A DNA stretch of 64,000 nucleotides from Candidatus Marinacidobacterium sp. (GTDB lineage: Bacteria > Acidobacteriota > Vicinamibacteria > Marinacidobacterales > Marinacidobacteraceae): positions 2,820,673-2,884,672 of the forward strand of contig OZ244852.1 in the NCBI GenBank assembly GCA_965220965.1, given 5' to 3'. Below, in pieces: positions 8,013-56,581 of this stretch. The position numbers and the translations under genes are program-made. The notes under the pieces were generated by a model. The model had not been told where the DNA came from. It did no database searches and saw only the letters and a list, made by a program, of their open reading frames with translations. Position 1 is the stretch's first letter, and each line of letters opens with the position of its first letter.

Positions 8013-8135
8013 ACGCGATCTGGCGCGTCAATCAGGGTCAGACGCGCGCGGCAATCAGGATGAGACGCTGAACGCCGGTCGCGAGGGCGGGTGGGCGAGC
8101 CTTCACTGGGGCGCGGTGTGATGTCTCGCTCAAGT

Positions 8136-39938: not shown

Positions 39939-41078
39939 TCAGGCGAGGGCCTGCTCCAGGTCGGCGATCAGATCGTCCGGGTGCTCGAGGCCAACCGAGA
40001 CCCGGATCAGGTCGCGGGGGGTCGGGCTGTCCGGCCCCTCGACTGCGAAGCGGTGTTCGGCCAGCGTCTCCACCCCGCCGAGGCTCGTGGCCCGCACCAG
40101 AAGCTGCAGGCGGGACATGAAGCTCCGGGCGCCTTCCTCGCCGCCGGCGACCCGGAAGGAGAGCATCGCTCCCGGACCGTCCGCCTGCCGCGACTGCAGC
40201 GCGTGGCCGGGGTCCCCCGGCAAGCCGGGGTAGCAGGTCTGGACGACTCCCGGATGGGCGTCGAGGAAGGCGGCGAGCGCCGCCGCGTTCCGGCTCTGCT
40301 CCCGGATGCGGACCGGAAGCGTCCTGACGCCGCGCCGGATGAGCCAGGCGTCGAACGGCGACGGGATGGGCCCGGTGTCGGCCTGGCTGTTGCGGATGCG
40401 CGCGCCCAGCTCCAGCCCCTCGCGGACCACCACCGATCCGCCGATCACGTCGGAATGGCCGCCGAAGTACTTCGTCGTCGAGTGGATCACCACGTCGGCG
40501 CCCAGTTCGAGGGGACGCTGGAGCACCGGGGTCATCCAGGTGTTATCCACTGCAAGGAGCGCGCCGCCCGCGCGGCAGCGCTCGGCGACCGAGGCGATGT
40601 CGGTCACCCGGAGCATCGGGTTCGAGGGGGTCTCCACCAGCGCGAGCGCCGGTCCCGCCTCGAACGCCGCGTCCAGATCGTCCGCGTCGAGGAAATCGGT
40701 GAACCGCGTCCGCAGGCCCCACCGCGCGAGCGGCTCCCGCAGCAGATGCATCGTGCCGTGGTAGGCGTCCCGGGGGGCGAGGACCAGGTCGCCCGGGGAG
40801 AGCGCGAACATGACCGCGTGGGTCGCCGCCGTCCCCGAGGCGAAGGCGATGCAGTCCGCGCCGCCCTCGAGATCGGCGATCACGCTCTCGAGCGCGCTCC
40901 GGCCGGGATTGCCGCTCCGGCCGTAGATGTAGCCGGACGGGAGTTCCCCCGACCCGTCCCGCTCGAAGGTGGTGGAGAGGTGGATCGACGGCGCCACCGC
41001 GCCGGTCGGATCTTCGGCTTGCCGACCGCCGTGGATGCTCCGGGTCTCGATCCGCCGGGAACGTGGGGAGTCAGTCAC
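39939..41078 (-). CDS. metB: Cystathionine gamma-synthase/lyase family PLP enzyme
   Basis: YGRSGNP, FASG, ETPSNP, VDNTW, HSTTKYFGGHSD, TSLGGVET, RVSVGLE. Exact specificity is uncertain. Confidence 0.85.
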   Translation of the reverse strand: MTDSPRSRRIETRSIHGGRQAEDPTGAVAPSIHLSTTFERDGSGELPSGYIYGRSGNPGRSALESVIADLEGGADCIAFASGTAATHAVMFALSPGDLVLAPRDAYHGTMHLLREPLARWGLRTRFTDFLDADDLDAAFEAGPALALVETPSNPMLRVTDIASVAERCRAGGALLAVDNTWMTPVLQRPLELGADVVIHSTTKYFGGHSDVIGGSVVVREGLELGARIRNSQADTGPIPSPFDAWLIRRGVRTLPVRIREQSRNAAALAAFLDAHPGVVQTCYPGLPGDPGHALQSRQADGPGAMLSFRVAGGEEGARSFMSRLQLLVRATSLGGVETLAEHRFAVEGPDSPTPRDLIRVSVGLEHPDDLIADLEQALA

Positions 41079-41148
41079 GGCGAGGGCGAAGCGATGGTTG
41101 TGGAGGACCGCGCCACCCCCGCGAGCGTCAGTCCGTTCCCCCCTGGGC

Positions 41149-41310
41149 GGTGAAACGGGGCGAAGGGTTGGTTCCGTCCTACGGAGTCGTAGGGGGGCGT
41201 CGCGTGTCGGGCCCGGGCTTCCCCCTGGGGGATGCGCTTCCCGCCCGGCAGTGGTGACTCCCTTGTGGTTCCATTAGTAGCCGGAACACAGGGTGTCGCC
41301 CCGGTTCGCC
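41149..41310 (-). ncRNA. ssrS: Probable 6S RNA
   Basis: The minus strand folds into a rod. GGCGAACCGGGGCGA pairs with TCGCCCCGTTTCACC and GTTCCG with CGGAAC; there is an A-rich central bubble with a small 3' hairpin (CCTACG..CGTAGG); GGGAGTC pairs with GACGCCC; the apical stem carries GCGCA/GGAAGCC. A TAAGAT -10 box lies just upstream. Confidence 0.6.
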
Positions 41311-41314
41311 ACGC

Positions 41315-41320
41315 ATCTTA
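41315..41320 (-). promoter_or_regulatory. -10 box (TAAGAT) for the putative 6S RNA
   Basis: TAAGAT about 4-5 nt upstream of the predicted 5' stem. Confidence 0.45.
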
Positions 41321-41499
41321 GCGACCGCGCGGAGCGACGCCCGAAAACCAGCCGTTGCCCGAGGGCGCCGTGATCAGCGCGGCGCGGAGGTCCTGACGCC
41401 CCCCGCAGCCCCCGGCCCGGCGGGGTTCGCCACGCCCCCAGGAGCGGCGGGCAAGCCCTCACCCCGATCGACGCGCCACCACCTCTCCCCCGGCTCCGC

Positions 41500-44400
41500 A
41501 ACCGGAGTGGGCAGTTTTCGAGTGCAACAAGTGGGCAGTTCTCGCGTGCAGGACGTGGGAAGTTCTCGCGTGCAATCCCGGACCGGGAGGAGGGTCCGCC
41601 GCCCCGCCGCCATCGTCCTGGCAATCGAATGTCGCCCTGCTGCGGGGAGCCGCTGCTTGAGGCGGAGGACCTCAGAGCGGCTTCCACGGTCTGATTGGAG
41701 TCCGCAGCCGGATCCCGGGACGCGCCCGGCCGCCACACCACAAACTGTCGACCAAAACGGGGCAACCTCATCCCGACTCCGCTCCGCGAGTGGGCAGTTC
41801 TCGAGTTCAAGAAGTGGGCAGTTCTCGCGTGCCAGAAGTGGGCAGTTCTCGAGTGCCAGAAGTGGGCAGTTCTCGAATGCAAATCCGGCCCGGGAGGGAG
41901 CGCCCGGCTCGGCCATCGGGATGGCCTCAGGCGTCGCGCCAACTGACGGAGGCCGCGGTTCGATCCCAATGGCGGCCCGGTCGCCACACAACAACCTGTC
42001 TACGAAAACGGGGCAGCCTCACCCCGACTCCGCCCCGCGGGTGGGCAGTTCTCGAGTTCAAAGAGTGGGAAGTTCTCGCGTGCCAGAAGTGGGAAGTTCT
42101 CGCGTGCAATCCCGGACCGGGAGGAGGGTCCACGGCCCTGCCTCCATCGTCCTGGCAATCGAAGTGTCGCCCTGCCGCGGAGAGCCGCTGGCAGAGGCGG
42201 AGGATCTCAGAGCGGCTTCCACGGTCTGATCGGAGGCCGCAGCCCGATCCCGGGAGGCGTTCCGGTCCCCACACTACGAACTGTCTACAAGAACGGGGCA
42301 ACCCCACCCCTCGTCGCTCACCCAGCCCGCTTCAACGGCGCGCCCTCGAACCCCCCCGAGGCTCGACCCTCGAAAATGTTTCCAGTAGCCCGACAGGCGT
42401 TGTCTCGTTATCTCCTTGACTGCACGCCCTTAATCTTCTGAAGGGGCTGTGAAGTTCCCGCTCTGGCGGCGGGGTTCCGCAATGCCCCCGCCATCGGCGA
42501 CCAGCGTCTCATCCTGATTGACGGGCGCGTCCAACTCTGATTGACGCGCCCCACAGCGGCCCGACCCCAGAAGCCGCCCGGTCGCCACACGACAAACTGT
42601 CTACGAAAACGGGGCAACCCATCCGACTCCGCCCCGCGAGTGGGCAGTTCTCGAGTTCAAAGAGTGGGCAGTTCTCGTGTGCCGGAAGTGGGAAGTTCTC
42701 GTGTGCAATCCCGGATCGGGAGAAGGGGCCACGGCCTTACCTCCATCGTCCTGGCAATCGAAATGTCGCCCTGCCGCGGGGAGCCGCTGGCCGAGGCGGA
42801 GGACCTCAGAGCGGCTTCCACGGCCCGATCGGAGGCCGCAGCCAGATCCCGGGAGGCGTCCCGGTCGCCACACTCCGAACTGTCTACGAAAACGGGGCAA
42901 CCTCACCCCGACTCCGCCCCGCGAGTGGGCAGTTCTCGTGTGCAGGAAGTGGGCAGTTCTCGCGTGCAATCCCGGATCAGGAGAAGGGCCCACGGCCCTT
43001 CCGCCATCGTCCTGGCAATCGAAGTGTCGCCCTGCCGCGGGGAGCCGCTGGCCGAGGCGGAGGACCGCAGAGCGGCTTCCACCGTCTGATCGAAGGCCGC
43101 AGCCAGATCGCGGGAGGCGTCCCGGTCGCCACACAACAGACTGGCTACGAAGACGGGGCAACCTCATTCTCGTCGCTCACCCGCCCCCCTTCACGGACGC
43201 GCCTGCGAACCCGAGGCGGCCCTGGCGCATGTTTCCAGTAGCCGGACAGGCGTTCCCCTCTTATCTCGTTGACTTCACACCCTTTATTCTCTGAAAGGGC
43301 CGTGAAGTTCCCGCTGTGGCGGCGGGGTTCCGCAATGCCCCCGCCATCGGCGTCCAGCGTCTCATCCTGATTGAAGCCCAGGCCGTGAACTCCCGAGGCT
43401 CGACCTCGCAAGTGTTTCCAGTACCCGGACAGGCCGTGCCTCTTTATCTTCTTGACTGCACGCCCTTTATTGTCTGAAAGGGCTGTGAGGTTCCCGCTGG
43501 GGAGGCCGGGTTCCGCGATGCCCTCGCAACCGGCGTTCAGCGTCTCCCCTGACGCGCCACCGCGGCCCGACCCCAGGAGGCGCCCAGTCGCCACACAACA
43601 AACTGTCTACGAGAACGGGACAACCTCACCCCTCGTCGCTCACCCACCCCCTTCAACGGCGCGCCTTCGAACCCCGAGGCACGACCCTCGAAATGTTTCC
43701 AGTAGCCGAACAGGCTGTGCCTCGTTATCTCGTTGACTAAACGCCCTTTGTTTTCTGAAAGGGCTGTGAGGTTCCCGCTGTGGCGACGGGGTTCCGCAAT
43801 GCCCCCGCGATCGGTGTCGAGCGTCTCATCCTGATTGACGCGCCCCACTCAGACAGTCGCGCCGACGGAGGGAGGCCACGGCCCGCTCTCCAATGGGGGC
43901 CCGGTCGCCACACTACGAACTGTCTACGAAAACGGGGCAACCCATCCGACTCCGCCTCGCGAGTGGGCAGTTCTCCAATTCAAAAGGTGGGCAGTTCTCG
44001 CGTGCCAGAAGTGGGAAGTTCTCGCGTGCAAATTCGGTCTGGGGACGGAGCGCCCGGCTCGGCCATCGGGATGGTCTCAGGCGTCGCGCCAACTGACGGA
44101 GGCCGCGGTTCGATCCCAATGGCGGCCCGGTCGCCACACTACGAACCGTCCAGGAGGACGGGGCAACGTCACCCCTCGTCGCTCACCCAACCCCGTTCAG
44201 GGACGCGCCGCCGAACCCCGAAGGGCCCCCGCAAGTGTTCCAGTAGCCGGACAGGCGGCGCCTCGTTATCTCCTTGACCTCACGCCCTTTGTTTTCTGAA
44301 AGGGCCGTGAAGTTCCCGCTGTGGCGGCGGGGTTCCGCAATGCCCCCGCCAGCGCCGTCCTGCGTCTCGTCCTGATTGACGCGCAACAGCTCGACCCTCG

Positions 44401-44690
44401 CACATGTTTCCAGTAGGCGGACAGGCGTTGCCTTGTTATCTCGTTGACTTCACGCCCTTTATTGTCCGAAAGGGCTGTGAAGTTCCCGCTGTGGCGGCCG
44501 GGTTCCGCAATGCCCCCGCCATCGGCGTCCAGCGTCTCATGCTGATTGACGCGCCAGACTCTTCACTACCGCGGCTCGACCCTCGCAAGTGTTTCCAGTA
44601 CCCGGGCAGGCGCTCCGTCGCTATCTCCCTGACTGCAAGCCCCTTTATTTTCTGAAAGGGCTGTGAATTTCCCGCTGTGGCGGCCCGGCA
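41500..44690. repeat. 3.2-kb non-coding modular repeat mosaic
   Basis: 18 copies of a 24-bp unit in 6 clusters, 9 copies of a ~45-bp hub, 7 copies of a ~150-bp palindromic module, plus 4+2 linker modules. All are in the same orientation. Confidence 0.95.
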
Positions 44691-44943
44691 CCAGGCGCTT
44701 CGCTGGTTGGGCGTGTCGATTGCCCGGCCCGTACGTGCTGCGACCTAGGGGCAGGGGGGAGGGTCCGGGAGGGGGGAACCCCCTCCCGCAATTTGTCTAT
44801 CGGATCGGAACTTGGCGAAGCAAGTTCCGATCCCTGGCCCGCAGGGCCAGGCGTTGTGTGGGAGGGGCCGCCTCCGCGGACGCCGACTATTGCGACGACG
44901 TCGCTCTGGCGGCCCCTCCCACGCAACGCGTGGTCACTCGCCG

Positions 44944-45027
44944 TGCCGGGAGCGGGGCTCGAACCCGCACGCCCCGGGGGGCAGGGAATTTTAAGTTCCC
45001 CACGTCTACCGATTCCGTCATCCCGGC
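44944..45027 (-). tRNA. tRNA-Leu(TAA)
   Basis: GCCGGGATGACGGAATCGGTAGACG...GGGAAC-TTAAAA-TTCCC, long variable arm, GGTTCGAGCCC, CCCGGCA. Confidence 0.95.
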
Positions 45028-45039
45028 GGCCGGCGACGG

Positions 45040-45112
45040 AGGCGGCGGGCGGATTCGAACCGCCGAATAGAGGTTTTGCAGACCTCCGCCTTGGCCACTT
45101 GGCTACGCCGCC
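45040..45112 (-). tRNA. tRNA-Cys(GCA)
   Basis: GGCGGCGTAGCCAAGTGG...GAGGT-CTGCAAA-ACCTC...GGTTCGAATCC...CGCCGCCT. Confidence 0.96.
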
Positions 45113-45155
45113 GTCACGCGCTCGTTAATCCGCCGCCCCCCTGCGTCGCGCCCCG

Positions 45156-45227
<72 letters not shown>

Positions 45228-53169: not shown

Positions 53170-53912
53170 CGGTCCCGTCCGGCGCGGCCCCGGTCCTCGA
53201 GTTCGAGGGCGTGGGGAAGCGCTTCGGCGGGATCCGGGCGCTCGAGGGGGTGAGCCTCGCGGTCCGCGAGGGGGAACTCGTCGCGCTCATCGGCCCTTCC
53301 GGCTCCGGCAAGAGCACGCTGCTGCGCTGCGCGAACCGCCTCGCCGAGCCCGACGCCGGAACCGTCCGGTTCGAGGGGACCGAGGTTCCCCGGAGCGGGC
53401 CGGAACTCGCCGAGGCGCGCCGCCGGATGGGGATGGTGTTCCAGTCGTTCAACCTCTACCCGCATCTGAGCGCGGTGGGGAACGTCGCGCTCGCTCCCCG
53501 CCGCGCCGCCGGCCGCTCCCCGGAAGCCGCCGCCGCCGCCGCGCGCGAGGCGCTCGACCGGGTGGGGCTCGGCGAGCGAGCCGATGCCTACCCCCACCAG
53601 CTGTCCGGCGGCCAGCAGCAGCGGGTGGCCATCGCCCGCGCGCTGGCGCTCGCCCCGCGCATCCTGCTCCTCGACGAGCCCACCAGCGCCCTCGACCCGG
53701 AGCTGGTGGGAAGCGTTCTCCGGGTCATCCGCTCGCTCCGGGCCGACGGGGTGGCCATGCTGATCGCCACCCACGAGATCGCCTTCGCCCGCGAGGCGGC
53801 CGACCGCATCGTGTTCCTCGCCGACGGCCGGATCGTGGAGTCGGGCCCGCCGGGGGAGATGCTGGAATCGCCCCGCAGCGAGCGGCTCCGGACCTTCCTC
53901 CGCCGGCTCTGA
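53166..53912 (+). CDS. Amino-acid ABC transporter ATP-binding protein (GlnQ-like)
   Basis: GPSGSGKST, MVFQSFNL, LSGGQQQRVAIARAL, DEPTSALDPEL. TTG start overlaps the upstream stop. Confidence 0.95.
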   Translation: MTVPSGAAPVLEFEGVGKRFGGIRALEGVSLAVREGELVALIGPSGSGKSTLLRCANRLAEPDAGTVRFEGTEVPRSGPELAEARRRMGMVFQSFNLYPHLSAVGNVALAPRRAAGRSPEAAAAAAREALDRVGLGERADAYPHQLSGGQQQRVAIARALALAPRILLLDEPTSALDPELVGSVLRVIRSLRADGVAMLIATHEIAFAREAADRIVFLADGRIVESGPPGEMLESPRSERLRTFLRRL

Positions 53913-53919
53913 GCGCCTC

Positions 53920-54627
53920 GTGGGCATCTTCTTCGACCCCGAGGCCCTCGCCATCGCCTGGCCGGCGGTCCGCTCCGGCATCTGGGTCACGCTGACCCTC
54001 GCGCTCGCCTCGATCGCCGCCGGCGTCTCGCTCGGCCTCGTCCTCGCCGTGCTCCGCGCGCTCGCCCGCCGGGGGCCGCTCCGGCGGGCTTCGGCGCTCA
54101 TCGTGGGCTACGCCGACCTGTTCCGGGCGATCCCGCCGCTCGTGCTGCTCGTCGTCCTCTACTTCGCCGCCCCCTTCGCGGGCGTCGAGCTGAGCGGCTG
54201 GGCGGCCTCGTTCACCGCGCTCGCGCTGGTGCTCGGCGCCTCCTCGGAGGAGATCTTCTGGGCGGGCATCACCGCCGTGGACCGCGGCCAGTGGGAGGCG
54301 GCGCTCTCCACCGGTCTCTCGCGCTGGACCGGGCTCGTCCGCGTCGTCCTCCCGCAGGCCGTCCGGCTGACGATCCCGCCGCTCACCAACCGGGCGATCG
54401 CCACCGGCAAGAACACTGCGCTCGCCTCGGTGGTGGCGGTGCCCGAGGTGCTGAACCAGGCGTCCAGCATCCAGGCCCAGACCGCGAGCCCGGCGCCGCT
54501 GCTGCTGGCCGCCGCCGTCTACCTCGCCCTCTTCCTGCCGCTGGTCCGGTTCGGACGCTGGCTGGAGACGCTCGCGCCCGCCGGATCCCGGGGCGTCCCG
54601 AAACCCGCCGCACGAGCGGCCGGGTGA
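53920..54627 (+). CDS. Amino-acid ABC transporter permease
   Basis: FRAIPPLV; GQWEAALSTGL EAA loop; VVLPQA. Confidence 0.93.
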   Translation: MGIFFDPEALAIAWPAVRSGIWVTLTLALASIAAGVSLGLVLAVLRALARRGPLRRASALIVGYADLFRAIPPLVLLVVLYFAAPFAGVELSGWAASFTALALVLGASSEEIFWAGITAVDRGQWEAALSTGLSRWTGLVRVVLPQAVRLTIPPLTNRAIATGKNTALASVVAVPEVLNQASSIQAQTASPAPLLLAAAVYLALFLPLVRFGRWLETLAPAGSRGVPKPAARAAG

Positions 54628-54632
54628 CCGAC

Positions 54633-55313
54633 ATGGGCGAACTGGTCGAGACGTTCTTCAACCTCCGGGTCATGGGGGAGAGCGCCGGGCTGCTCCTCCG
54701 GGGGCTGCTCGTGACCGCGGAGGTCAGCCTCATCGCCGTCCCGGCGGGGCTCGCCATCGGCGCGATCGCGGCCATCCTGCAGGCGCTCGCCCCACCGCCG
54801 CTGGAGCGCGCCCTGTCCTGGGTCGTGGACCTCGTCCGGGCTTTTCCGCCGCTCGTGCTCCTCGTGCTCGTGGTCCACGGCCTCCCCTTCGCCGGCATCG
54901 AGCTTCCCGCGCTCCTCGGGGTCGCCCTCGCGCTGACGGTGAACACTTCGGCCTACTACGGCGAAATCCTCCGCGCCGGGATCCTCGGCGTGGGCTCGGG
55001 CCAGTGGGAGGCCGCCCGCTCCACCGGGCTCGGGACGTTCGCCGCGCTCCGGTTCGTCGTCGTGCCCCAGGGAGTAAGAAAGGTCCTCCCCGACCTCGTC
55101 GGGAACACGCTCGAGGCGGTGAAGCTCACCGCGCTGGCGAGCGTCGTCGCGCTCCCCGACCTCCTCCGCATGGCCCGCATCACCCAGGGCGTCCACTTCA
55201 ACCCGTCGCCGCTGATCCTCGCCTCCGTCCTGTACCTCGCCTTTCTCTGGCCGCTCGCCCGCCTCGTCCGCCGGATCGAGGCCTCCCGCGCCGCCGGCGC
55301 CGCCTTCCGCTGA
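54633..55313 (+). CDS. Amino-acid ABC transporter permease
   Basis: RAFPPLV; SAYYGEILRAG; GQWEAARSTGL. Confidence 0.93.
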   Translation: MGELVETFFNLRVMGESAGLLLRGLLVTAEVSLIAVPAGLAIGAIAAILQALAPPPLERALSWVVDLVRAFPPLVLLVLVVHGLPFAGIELPALLGVALALTVNTSAYYGEILRAGILGVGSGQWEAARSTGLGTFAALRFVVVPQGVRKVLPDLVGNTLEAVKLTALASVVALPDLLRMARITQGVHFNPSPLILASVLYLAFLWPLARLVRRIEASRAAGAAFR

Positions 55314-55334
55314 GGGCGCCGCCACGCGGCGGGG

Positions 55335-55685
55335 TCAGCCGGTTTCGGTGGCGATGCGCAGCTTGCCCGGCTCGGTCGAACGCCCCGGCCGGATGACGAT
55401 GTCGATGTCCGGGCCGAGCGCGGTCAGCAGGCGGAACAGCCGCTCCAGCGAGACCTGACGGAAGTCGCCCCGCAGCAGCCGCGACACGTCGGGCTGGCTC
55501 AGCCCGAGCAGCCGCGCGGCTTCCGTCTGGGTGACGCCGCGCTGGCGCACGAGCGCGTCGATGCGGCTGACGATGTCGGCCTTGAGCAGGTGGGCGTCGG
55601 CGTCGGGACGGTCCAGGTCGGCGAAGACGTTGCCGCTCCCGGGCTCGATGTTCGCGTCAGTGGAAGTCATGGCTTGTCCGCTCAT
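55335..55685 (-). CDS. XRE/HTH_37 (HigA-like) antitoxin or regulator, orphan
   Basis: GSGNVFADL, TQTEAARLLGLSQPDVSRL, SLERLFRLLTALG. Confidence 0.9.
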   Translation of the reverse strand: MSGQAMTSTDANIEPGSGNVFADLDRPDADAHLLKADIVSRIDALVRQRGVTQTEAARLLGLSQPDVSRLLRGDFRQVSLERLFRLLTALGPDIDIVIRPGRSTEPGKLRIATETG

Positions 55686-55798
55686 GGCGATTTCACCATA
55701 TCGCGGCGGGCCGCGTCGGACACGGGGGTGGCGTCACCGGAGCCGGCTCTCTCGTCGCCAGCCGGTCGCCCCCCGGCGTCGGGCTCCGGGCCTGACGC

Positions 55799-56581
55799 TC
55801 AGGAGGACGGAAGCGCGTGGAGCTCCTGGCGCTCGATGAGGCTGCGGAAGTGGGCGATCAGCGTCCTGGCGAACACCGGATCCCGCAGCAGGACGCCGAC
55901 CTCGATGTTGTCCCTGAGCGCCCGCTCCGTCAGGTTGGCCGAGGTCACGAGGACCCGTTCCTCGTCGGTCACGAGAACCTTGGCGTGGAGGACGCCTTTG
56001 GCGCCATCCGGATTCAGCGATCGGGGGTCGTAGAAGACCCGGGGACGGCGCTTCCCCGGCCATTCGTTGCTCCAGAGCCGCTCCGCGAAGCGGAGAACCA
56101 GATCGTCGACCCGTGTCGTGTCTGTCTGTGTGCGCTCGATGTTCAGGAGGAGGGTGACGGCGAGTCCGGGAACCTCCTCCATGCGCTTCGCCAGCGGCTC
56201 GAAAGCGCGGGGTCCGTCAAAGAAGGCGTAGGTCGAGAGCCAGACGGAGGCGCGGACGCTTCCGAGAGCCCGGTCGAAAGCCTCCCGGGTGGGGCGCGAG
56301 GCGACGCCGGGGACCTTCGGACCGGACCACACGAACTCGGGCGCCTCGCGGCGTCGCTCCGCCGCTTCCAGACTCCGGAGCCACGCCGCCTTCGCCCGCG
56401 CCGGGACGCCGAGCCGTTCCCACGCTTCGAGGGCTGCGAGCACGCCCTCGGGCGGCTCGTCCGTCCCGAGCGCTGACAGCAGCGAGACGCGGGAGAAGGG
56501 CGCGGCGAGCAGGCCGGTCTCGAGGGCCGACGCGAGCTTTCGTCGAAGGTGCGGCGGGAGGTCGAGAAGCGCTGCGCTCAA
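55799..56581 (-). CDS. drmC: DISARM phospholipase D-like nuclease
   Basis: FVWSGP; HAKVLVTD...SANLT...NIEVG (HKD). TTG start overlaps the drmB stop. Confidence 0.9.
   Translation of the reverse strand: MSAALLDLPPHLRRKLASALETGLLAAPFSRVSLLSALGTDEPPEGVLAALEAWERLGVPARAKAAWLRSLEAAERRREAPEFVWSGPKVPGVASRPTREAFDRALGSVRASVWLSTYAFFDGPRAFEPLAKRMEEVPGLAVTLLLNIERTQTDTTRVDDLVLRFAERLWSNEWPGKRRPRVFYDPRSLNPDGAKGVLHAKVLVTDEERVLVTSANLTERALRDNIEVGVLLRDPVFARTLIAHFRSLIERQELHALPSS

Follow-up and report, generated by a model that had tools for sequence, protein, structure and literature searches.

Mosaic arrays of short repeats have been described in Neisseria, where, according to the account in PMC1797815, the RS units of Neisseria intergenic mosaic elements (NIMEs) are separated by dRS3 repeats, such arrays occupy many loci syntenic between species, and a palindrome of 20 bp, which serves as their hub, is a phage integration site. 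Direct repeats are also found at the ends of insertion sequences (IS) of the IS21 family: as outlined in PMC10122671, several of them follow each other 23 bp apart and are bound by IstA, two of them being needed for integration, and cleavage takes place at the terminal CA. Here we consider a non-coding array of about 3.2 kb (positions 41507-44688) in a 64,000-nt stretch of DNA of Candidatus Marinacidobacterium sp. (assembly GCA_965220965.1, contig OZ244852.1, positions 2,820,673 to 2,884,672), hereinafter the window, from the first letter of which all positions without a contig name are counted. The source genome has 3.25 Mb with 71% G+C, and the window makes up the final 64 kb of a 2.88-Mb contig. 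Modules of five kinds, designated A to E, alternate in the array in a rule-like order. We regard the locus as probably a strain-specific scrapyard of IS ends, which was amplified by tandem segmental duplication and unequal recombination and carries no selected function.

Order and confinement of the modules

The motif map of the array reads A3-B-D-A4-C-D-A3-B-D-E-D-A3-B-D-A2-B-D-E-E-D-E-D-A3-C-D-E-E-E, where the numerals give the number of units in each A cluster and the final E is truncated. Every module lies on the + strand, and both the order and the co-orientation are identical to those proposed by the initial annotation, which had been made from the letters alone. Altogether 18 units of 24 bp in six A clusters, four B, two C, nine D and seven E were counted. 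Tandem Repeats Finder registered five arrays with a period of 24, one with a period of 261 (1.9 copies, 91% matches) and one with a period of 170 (2.5 copies, 81%). Repeat families comprise 4-9 copies, which are diverged, as had been stated, showing 62-92% identity to reference copies. The claimed absence of unique spacers also held, every segment being repeated according to both the repeat families and the self-comparison, and a CRISPR array was ruled out on the same ground. Self-comparison gave no inverted matches inside the array. A complete IS or a miniature inverted-repeat transposable element was ruled out by this result and by the lack of copies of B, C and the head-mid part of E elsewhere.

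Profile searches of the whole genome (nhmmer) found outside the array no copies of B, C or E head-mid, two copies of D, one A cluster and two sites of the E tail (E-value <0.01). The modules are almost confined to one locus: the genome-wide search, which the initial annotation had suggested, showed that they are not dispersed and that nearly all their copies stand in the array.

Insertion sequence ends among the modules

Homology identifies A as the multi-repeat terminal region of an IS21-family element. Besides the six clusters of the array its profile detected only one site in the genome, C1:1461799-1461888 (E-value 4e-10; also found by blastn), and this site is the left end of an element (C1:1461799-1463909) that encodes IstA (C1:1461822-1463078) with rve and helix-turn-helix domains and IstB (PF01695, E-value 5e-76). 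When A was aligned with the left end of the istA/istB element, the same three-unit 24-bp layout was seen in both, the variant third unit included, together with about 25 nt of common inner flank. As the sole outside copy belongs to the left end of an IstA- and IstB-encoding element, the resemblance of A to IS21 ends noticed in the first reading was well founded. The spacing of 24 bp and the clusters of 2-4 units fit the description of IS21 terminal repeats in PMC10122671. The clusters run with ...GTGCAAT or ...GTGCAAA directly into B or C, and in the alignment the last ~7 nt of the IS21-type terminus (ISa), including CA, are absent; the position of this terminus, and hence the missing CA, is suggested by the IS21 elements residing in a CRISPR locus of the same genome.

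The latter (G000:C1:1459115-1465000, L013) is a CRISPR array with a 37-nt repeat broken by two IS21-family elements, one of which has the left end only. A solo IS21-type end is likewise inside it, and its far end carries a further solo terminal repeat of IS21 type next to a 100-aa relic of IS3 orfA, which truncates the last CRISPR repeat. When GTDB genomes were scanned for pairs of adjacent A units, two matches were obtained, both representing simple 24-bp tandem repeats without IstA or IstB nearby. A metagenome-assembled contig of another member of Acidobacteriota (L019, 6519-6582) has four exact tandem 24-bp repeats with a 12-nt A-unit core, which are intergenic and have no IstA or IstB within the 8 kb examined. 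In a genome of the same genus, G002, a 2788-bp IS21-family element occupies seven sites of C1 (for instance 53557-56344; L060) with identical IstB match scores. Two of these copies, when compared, were 99.9% identical, each end bearing two 24-bp repeats, and this shows that the family of the element is active in the genus.

The last ~30 nt of module D identify it as an IS3-family terminal inverted repeat, namely the right one. Scanning of metagenome contigs with the D core yielded 14 contigs; in 13 of them the core stands ~45 nt after the C-terminal end of a transposase gene, and the fourteenth is cut there. Pfam analysis of three of these contigs assigned the transposase to the IS3 type (HTH_21, rve and rve_3/rve_2). 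After ...CCTCA the flanks diverge, making nine distinct sites among the 14 contigs, so that ...CCTCA is the element boundary. All nine D copies match just the last 28-33 nt of that element (blastn, 84-94% identity), and the terminal TCA is retained in six. The likeness of D to IS3 ends, also perceived at first reading, is thus confirmed by an element present in 14 metagenome contigs.

No counterpart of this end was found in the array, where all D-like sites have the right-end orientation and none is an IS3 left end, and tblastn gave zero matches to an IS3-type transposase gene in the genome at E-value <=1e-5. The left inverted repeat of the metagenome element had no full-length match and was met in a shortened version in one contig; many metagenome copies of the element are truncated to the right end. 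Two D-like relics, both intergenic, lie in the genome outside the array. Four of the 28 family genomes examined have D-type ends; only here are they clustered and co-oriented (9 forward, 0 reverse, 8 in the array), in the other three carriers they are dispersed on both strands.

Module E is composite. Its tail is built of a 23-nt unit ending with ...CCACA, and both units are kept in E1 alone. The two-unit motif of the tail, ending with ...GCGCCACA, occurs as single copies in the genomes G001, G002 and G009 and at two other sites of the genome under study (G000). In G001 relics of IstA and IstB (52-62% identical) come after a terminus of this type, and by virtue of them the E tail is assigned, at the level of homology, to a second IS21 lineage as its terminal repeat. 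The remaining part, E head-mid, is ~120 nt long and contains a 39-nt hairpin conserved in all seven copies. E had been annotated as a palindromic module of ~150 bp; this is correct for the 39-nt hairpin and incorrect for the rest, which is not palindromic and has no inverted match in the array, the tail being an IS21-type repeat.

Terminal repeats of IS21 type were also met near other genes. In G001 (C35:50300-57400; L045, L063) a gene for a 1254-aa protein with a SIR2_2 domain is bracketed by ~330-nt inverted repeats, which end in an IS21-type terminal repeat; relics of IstA/IstB lie to one side of it, and an IS256-type (Transposase_mut) relic lies to the opposite side. A composite-transposon-like element that carries a defence gene is a possible interpretation of this locus. 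In the window itself, segment 5243-11140 lacks open reading frames (ORFs) with high G+C content at the third codon position (GC3) and contains a Schlafen/AlbA_2 + HATPase_c_4 gene and a gene of a DUF4143 AAA ATPase, between which a solo IS21-type terminal repeat (8022-8088) is located on the - strand. The whole segment looks like acquired DNA.

Modules B and C have the first ~20 nt and the last ~50 nt in common and differ in the middle. For B no homology to the interior of the IS3 element was found, blastn matches being limited to its terminal 28-33 nt, and a search of the array by tblastn with IstA, IstB and the IS3 transposase revealed no meaningful coding relics, the matches of the IstA N-terminus being due to an ORF extended too far, into the repeats.

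Since part of the array is conserved as a hairpin, it is pertinent to ask whether B, C and E are units of tandem small RNA genes or of one long processed transcript. The region is gene-free and its G+C content (61-69%) is lower than in the flanks (70-79%); on the + strand E folds somewhat better than its shuffled versions (z = -2.57, 1 of 200 shuffles as good). However, just one of the 40 pairs predicted in E shows compensation, with an unfavourable covariation term, and hairpin mismatches lack it altogether. No sigma-70-like promoters were predicted in the array, terminator-like sites amount to six against 3.9 +/- 2.3 expected by chance, no Rfam family and no conservation in relatives were found, and those parts that can be identified are transposon ends. 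An array of RNA genes is therefore scarcely probable. The E-mid motif is 77-82% complementary to the 5' part of D over 22 nt, which may be a chance match.

Duplication history and the apparent grammar

Nested direct block duplications, from 170 to ~850 bp, are evident from self-comparison. The longest self-match (854 nt, 77.5%) pairs 41704-42521 with 42556-43374, that is D-A-C-D-A-B-D-E with D-A-B-D-A-B-D-E; a match of 482 nt (83.6%) represents D-E-D-A taken twice, and one of 356 nt (89.9%) is accompanied by many others of unit length, all of them direct. The arrays with periods of 261 and 170 agree with these blocks. Junctions of unlike fragments are constant: this is true for A with B or C in 6/6 cases, for D with the linker leading to A in 5/5 and for D with the linker leading to E in 4/4, and copying of one junction is a simpler way to such constancy than repeated independent insertions.

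Block duplications with D as a shared recombining stretch are able to account for the rule-like order of modules, the "rules" of which would then come down to a pair of ancestral units, A-B/C-D and E, that cross over at D. Two sub-types of D (...TACGAAC... and ...AACAAAC...) track neither the upstream nor the downstream neighbour, which, given that D is common to all unit types, fits recombination within D that swaps both sides. In this respect the locus shows that a module grammar can come from duplication history alone.

The same picture could in principle arise without duplication, if IS21-like and IS3-like elements were serially inserted into one another in one orientation at preferred sites downstream of tRNA-Leu, and deletions between direct repeats then took away their bodies and left one end of each. 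All ends do point in the same direction, and junctions do coincide with element termini (D stops at ...CCTCA, the last E at the E-mid motif). Nesting of IS21 elements is documented in this genome by the two elements and two solo ends inside one CRISPR array, and many IS3 copies in metagenomes are likewise reduced to the right end. But one nucleotide of B/C would have to be hit six times or more and one nucleotide of the IS21 inner flank five times or more, with matching deletions each time. IS21 is characterised in PMC10122671 as having no strong target sequence specificity. Besides that, long multi-unit blocks (854 and 482 nt) are what duplication predicts. Serial insertion is thus an unlikely origin of the array.

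In the scenario of tandem amplification, for which we infer the order of events, the recombination mechanism and the lack of selected function, fragments of at least three elements would have come together in intergenic DNA immediately beyond the tRNA-Leu 3' end. The founding pieces may have been a repeat-bearing end of an IS21-family element (A with ~25 nt of inner flank), a right inverted repeat of an IS3-family element (D) and a terminal repeat of the second IS21 lineage (the E tail), with the pieces that became B, C and E head-mid lying alongside. Two composite units, A-B/C-D of ~250-285 bp and E of ~170-185 bp, would then be copied head-to-tail and reshuffled by unequal homologous recombination. 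The D segment of ~70-90 nt, present in all unit types, might be the commonest crossover point in this process, and it is for this reason that D would look like a hub, followed by either A or E, as A is followed by either B or C.

Several observations do not favour this scenario. Copies differ by 8-38%, which means an old amplification or a high mutation rate of the region, and loss of a useless array of 3.2 kb might be expected if it is old. Random decay does not predict that ends of three unrelated elements should all face strictly one way; this calls for one founding composite or an orientation-specific process. The three E-to-E junctions are not identical. Modules B, C and E head-mid, making up about half of the sequence, showed no similarity to transposase genes, the rest of the genome, plasmids, phages or the 40 relatives searched. 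Finally, no single record spans the whole array, and its large-scale order rests on the assembly.

In favour of the scrapyard, the ends look dead: there is no IS3 transposase in the genome, A clusters have no CA terminus and an inverted partner end is missing. One may ask whether cleavage-dead candidate sites for transposase binding have been retained in such a pile for their action in cis, as a decoy or sink, as a means of target immunity for the tRNA-Leu/Cys/Gly-cysS region or as a damper of the resident IS21-family element. Putative sites are numerous (18 IstA-type repeats, ~7 repeats of the second IS21 lineage and nine IS3 ends), A clusters keep 2-4 well-conserved repeats of the binding type without the cleaved terminus, as expected of a site intended for binding only, and the genome possesses an istA/istB pair that looks intact and has ends of the matching type. 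Early work, according to PMC11208146, suggested immunity of IS21 to repeated transposition with its mechanism left open; immunity is considered here by analogy with the ends of Mu and Tn7. At the same time the array is not conserved beyond this strain, D copies have no IS3 transposase in the genome to bind, copies drift apart by 8-38%, and the same features follow from neutral decay. For these reasons a retained binding array seems very unlikely. If it were real, transposon-derived regulatory repeat clusters would have their counterpart in bacteria here, and the locus, should it bind transposases, would be a natural test bed for IS21 target immunity, the mechanism of which, as the 2024 paper puts it, awaits investigation (PMC11208146).

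Genomic environment and absence of the array in relatives

The array stands between a gene of Cys/Met metabolism, coding for a pyridoxal-phosphate (PLP) enzyme, and tRNA-Leu(taa) (Table 1). Not a single ORF with the coding signature of the genome (GC3 >0.85) was found in 41078-45227, which includes the 3.9 kb separating the PLP gene from tRNA-Leu, in line with the earlier statement that the array contains no credible ORF. It had also been correctly described that the array adjoins the tRNA-Leu 3' end and that mobility genes are lacking next to it. Rfam at both gathering and permissive thresholds reported just three tRNAs, other matches being at chance level. The hairpin directly downstream of tRNA-Leu is probably the terminator of the tRNA operon. 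One more G+C-rich hairpin (44753-44797, stem 44766-44788) resembles a terminator on the + strand and is a member of a short repeat that recurs at nine or more other places in the chromosome.

To check the assembly, contigs from public short-read runs of three studies were mapped on the locus. Contigs of run X1 covered 30 of 30 bins with zero differences, and the depth of the unique pieces (~100) was equal to that of the chromosomal flanks, which means that the repeat is not collapsed. Run X2 of another study covered 41100-42504 and run X3 of the third one 44182-44846, across the right boundary, both again with zero differences.

In the same-genus genome G002 the order of genes is retained (AcrB-type pump, ORF, PLP enzyme, tRNA-Leu), and the array is absent: the distance between the PLP gene (metB) and tRNA-Leu is ~450 nt there versus 3865 nt here. 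A conserved element, 83% identical to 41170-41308, ends in G002 29 nt from tRNA-Leu(taa), from which it is separated here by 3.6 kb. The whole region 41317-44942 is, according to this comparison, specific to this lineage. A search for the array in 40 relatives gave only matches of no more than 58 nt to D or the E tail, in five of them. Conservation of the module order across genomes, which had been offered as a check, was not observed at the syntenic site, since G002 has no array. The suggestion that the locus is an undescribed "system" finds no support either: besides its absence at this site and the failure to find it in the 40 relatives, there is no promoter, covariation or RNA-type conservation, and the order of modules derives from duplications. 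No positive sign emerged of any of the three roles put forward at first reading, namely a sponge, an ncRNA array and a chromosome-organising site.

Insertion exactly between the 3' end of tRNA-Leu and the sequence that abuts the tRNA in relatives is what one would expect from a decayed genomic island or integrative element, the repeats of which might be attachment (att) sites, origin iterons or partition sites. Clustered 24-bp repeats are also superficially iteron-like. However, these units are explained by homology to the IS21 end, the tRNA-Leu 3' end is not directly repeated within the array (best local alignment 20-23 versus a shuffled mean of 23), and neither an integrase, rep or par gene nor a match in plasmid or phage collections was found. 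Such an origin is quite improbable. Scores of att-like repeats of tRNA-Leu, tRNA-Cys and tRNA-Gly fell within the shuffled range, and a 21-nt match of B to tRNA-Cys (27 versus a null maximum of 26) was dropped. An origin or partition site was rejected as well: extremes of the cumulative GC skew are at ~0.17 and 2.39 Mb and the sole parS-like site is at 2.40 Mb, the array being located at 2.86 Mb.

The conserved element on the left had been taken for a probable 6S RNA. It is single-copy, and 15 of 18 other family genomes carry it beside tRNA-Leu(taa). The consensus folds into a rod to which a side hairpin is attached, with compensatory changes in 12 of 43 pairs. It is a candidate new structured RNA. 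Its identification as 6S RNA was not supported: 41080-41330 has no match in Rfam, and RF00013 has none in the window or the whole genome, although this model was matched in only 5 of 14 control genomes and its null result is weak evidence.

Table 1. Modules of the array and neighbouring features (positions in the window)
Feature	Position	Strand	Remarks
Cys/Met-metabolism PLP enzyme gene (metB)	39939-41078	-	left flank
Structured non-coding element	41170-41308		~140 nt; family-conserved, outside array
Lineage-specific DNA containing whole array	41317-44942		between conserved non-coding element and tRNA-Leu 3' end
A cluster 1	41507-41574	+	3 units of 24 bp, IS21-type terminal repeat region
A cluster 2	41790-41881	+	4 units
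A cluster 3	42041-42108	+	3 units
A cluster 4	42640-42707	+	3 units
A cluster 5	42925-42968	+	2 units
A cluster 6	43963-44030	+	3 units
B copy 1	41576-41726	+	~150 nt; nhmmer 4 matches, none outside array
B copy 2	42110-42261	+	
B copy 3	42709-42860	+	
B copy 4	42970-43121	+	
C copy 1	41882-41977	+	
C copy 2	44032-44128	+	
D copy 1	41703-41773	+	last ~30 nt correspond to IS3-family right inverted repeat
D copy 2	41954-42024	+	
D copy 3	42238-42309	+	
D copy 4	42556-42624	+	
D copy 5	42837-42908	+	
D copy 6	43098-43169	+	
D copy 7	43561-43631	+	
D copy 8	43877-43947	+	
D copy 9	44104-44174	+	
E copy 1	42355-42553	+	head-mid 42355-42475 with 39-nt hairpin; tail with two 23-nt IS21-type units
E copy 2	43213-43380	+	tail cut short
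E copy 3	43391-43559	+	tail with internal deletion
E copy 4	43672-43848	+	
E copy 5	44220-44388	+	
E copy 6	44383-44559	+	
E copy 7	44567-44688	+	head-mid part alone; array stops exactly after E-mid motif
Hairpin	44847-44933	-	26-bp arms, directly downstream of tRNA-Leu; from self-comparison
tRNA-Leu(taa)	44943-45027	-	right neighbour; then tRNA-Cys, tRNA-Gly, cysS

Comparison with known repeat arrays

Like the ends of IS21-family elements (L1/L2 and R1/R2, bound by IstA), the A clusters and E tails consist of 2-4 direct repeats spaced by 23-24 bp and are homologous to the ends of IstA/IstB elements. Unlike them, the array has one end type in one orientation, 6 + 6 times, with neither a partner end nor istA/istB between. 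Similarly, the last ~30 nt of D resemble a solo right inverted repeat of the IS3 family (84-94% match, TCA in 6/9), but a left end, orfA/orfB and the cognate transposase are lacking and nine co-oriented copies are packed in 2.5 kb.

Closest in form are the NIME arrays, which, as presented in PMC1797815, are also non-coding and alternate a short shared repeat with families of 50-150-bp units; they are thought there to grow and vary by recombination. In contrast to NIMEs the array is limited to one locus of one strain, its hub is an IS3 end, its units are absent elsewhere and it is not syntenic in G002. Bacterial interspersed mosaic elements (BIMEs), i.e. clusters of repetitive extragenic palindromes (REPs), share with it a rule-like mosaic of modules and linkers in intergenic DNA (PMC2817692, PMC3333891). 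In the description of PMC2817692 REP palindromes alternate in orientation and occupy at least 100 sites, whereas modules of the array are co-oriented, 45-190 nt long and belong to a single site. Thus, the array has no features that define NIMEs and BIMEs, such as many loci per genome and synteny, and is best classed as IS relics plus tandem duplication.

A narrow literature search on bacterial repeat arrays returned only dispersed mosaic repeats (NIMEs, BIMEs), and we make no claim that arrays of the present type are unpublished. If the locus did originate by duplication of scrapped IS ends, it would be a clean bacterial case of unrelated IS fragments seeding a higher-order tandem repeat, a route well known for eukaryotic satellites. 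For transposon-derived satellites of eukaryotes, in which unequal exchange enlarges tandem dimers of transposable elements, PMC5932611 outlines the same path, from adjacent transposon fragments through the first repeat to a higher-order tandem array; there it leads to megabase arrays, unlike the bacterial locus of 3.2 kb considered here, which is made from the ends of three unrelated IS.

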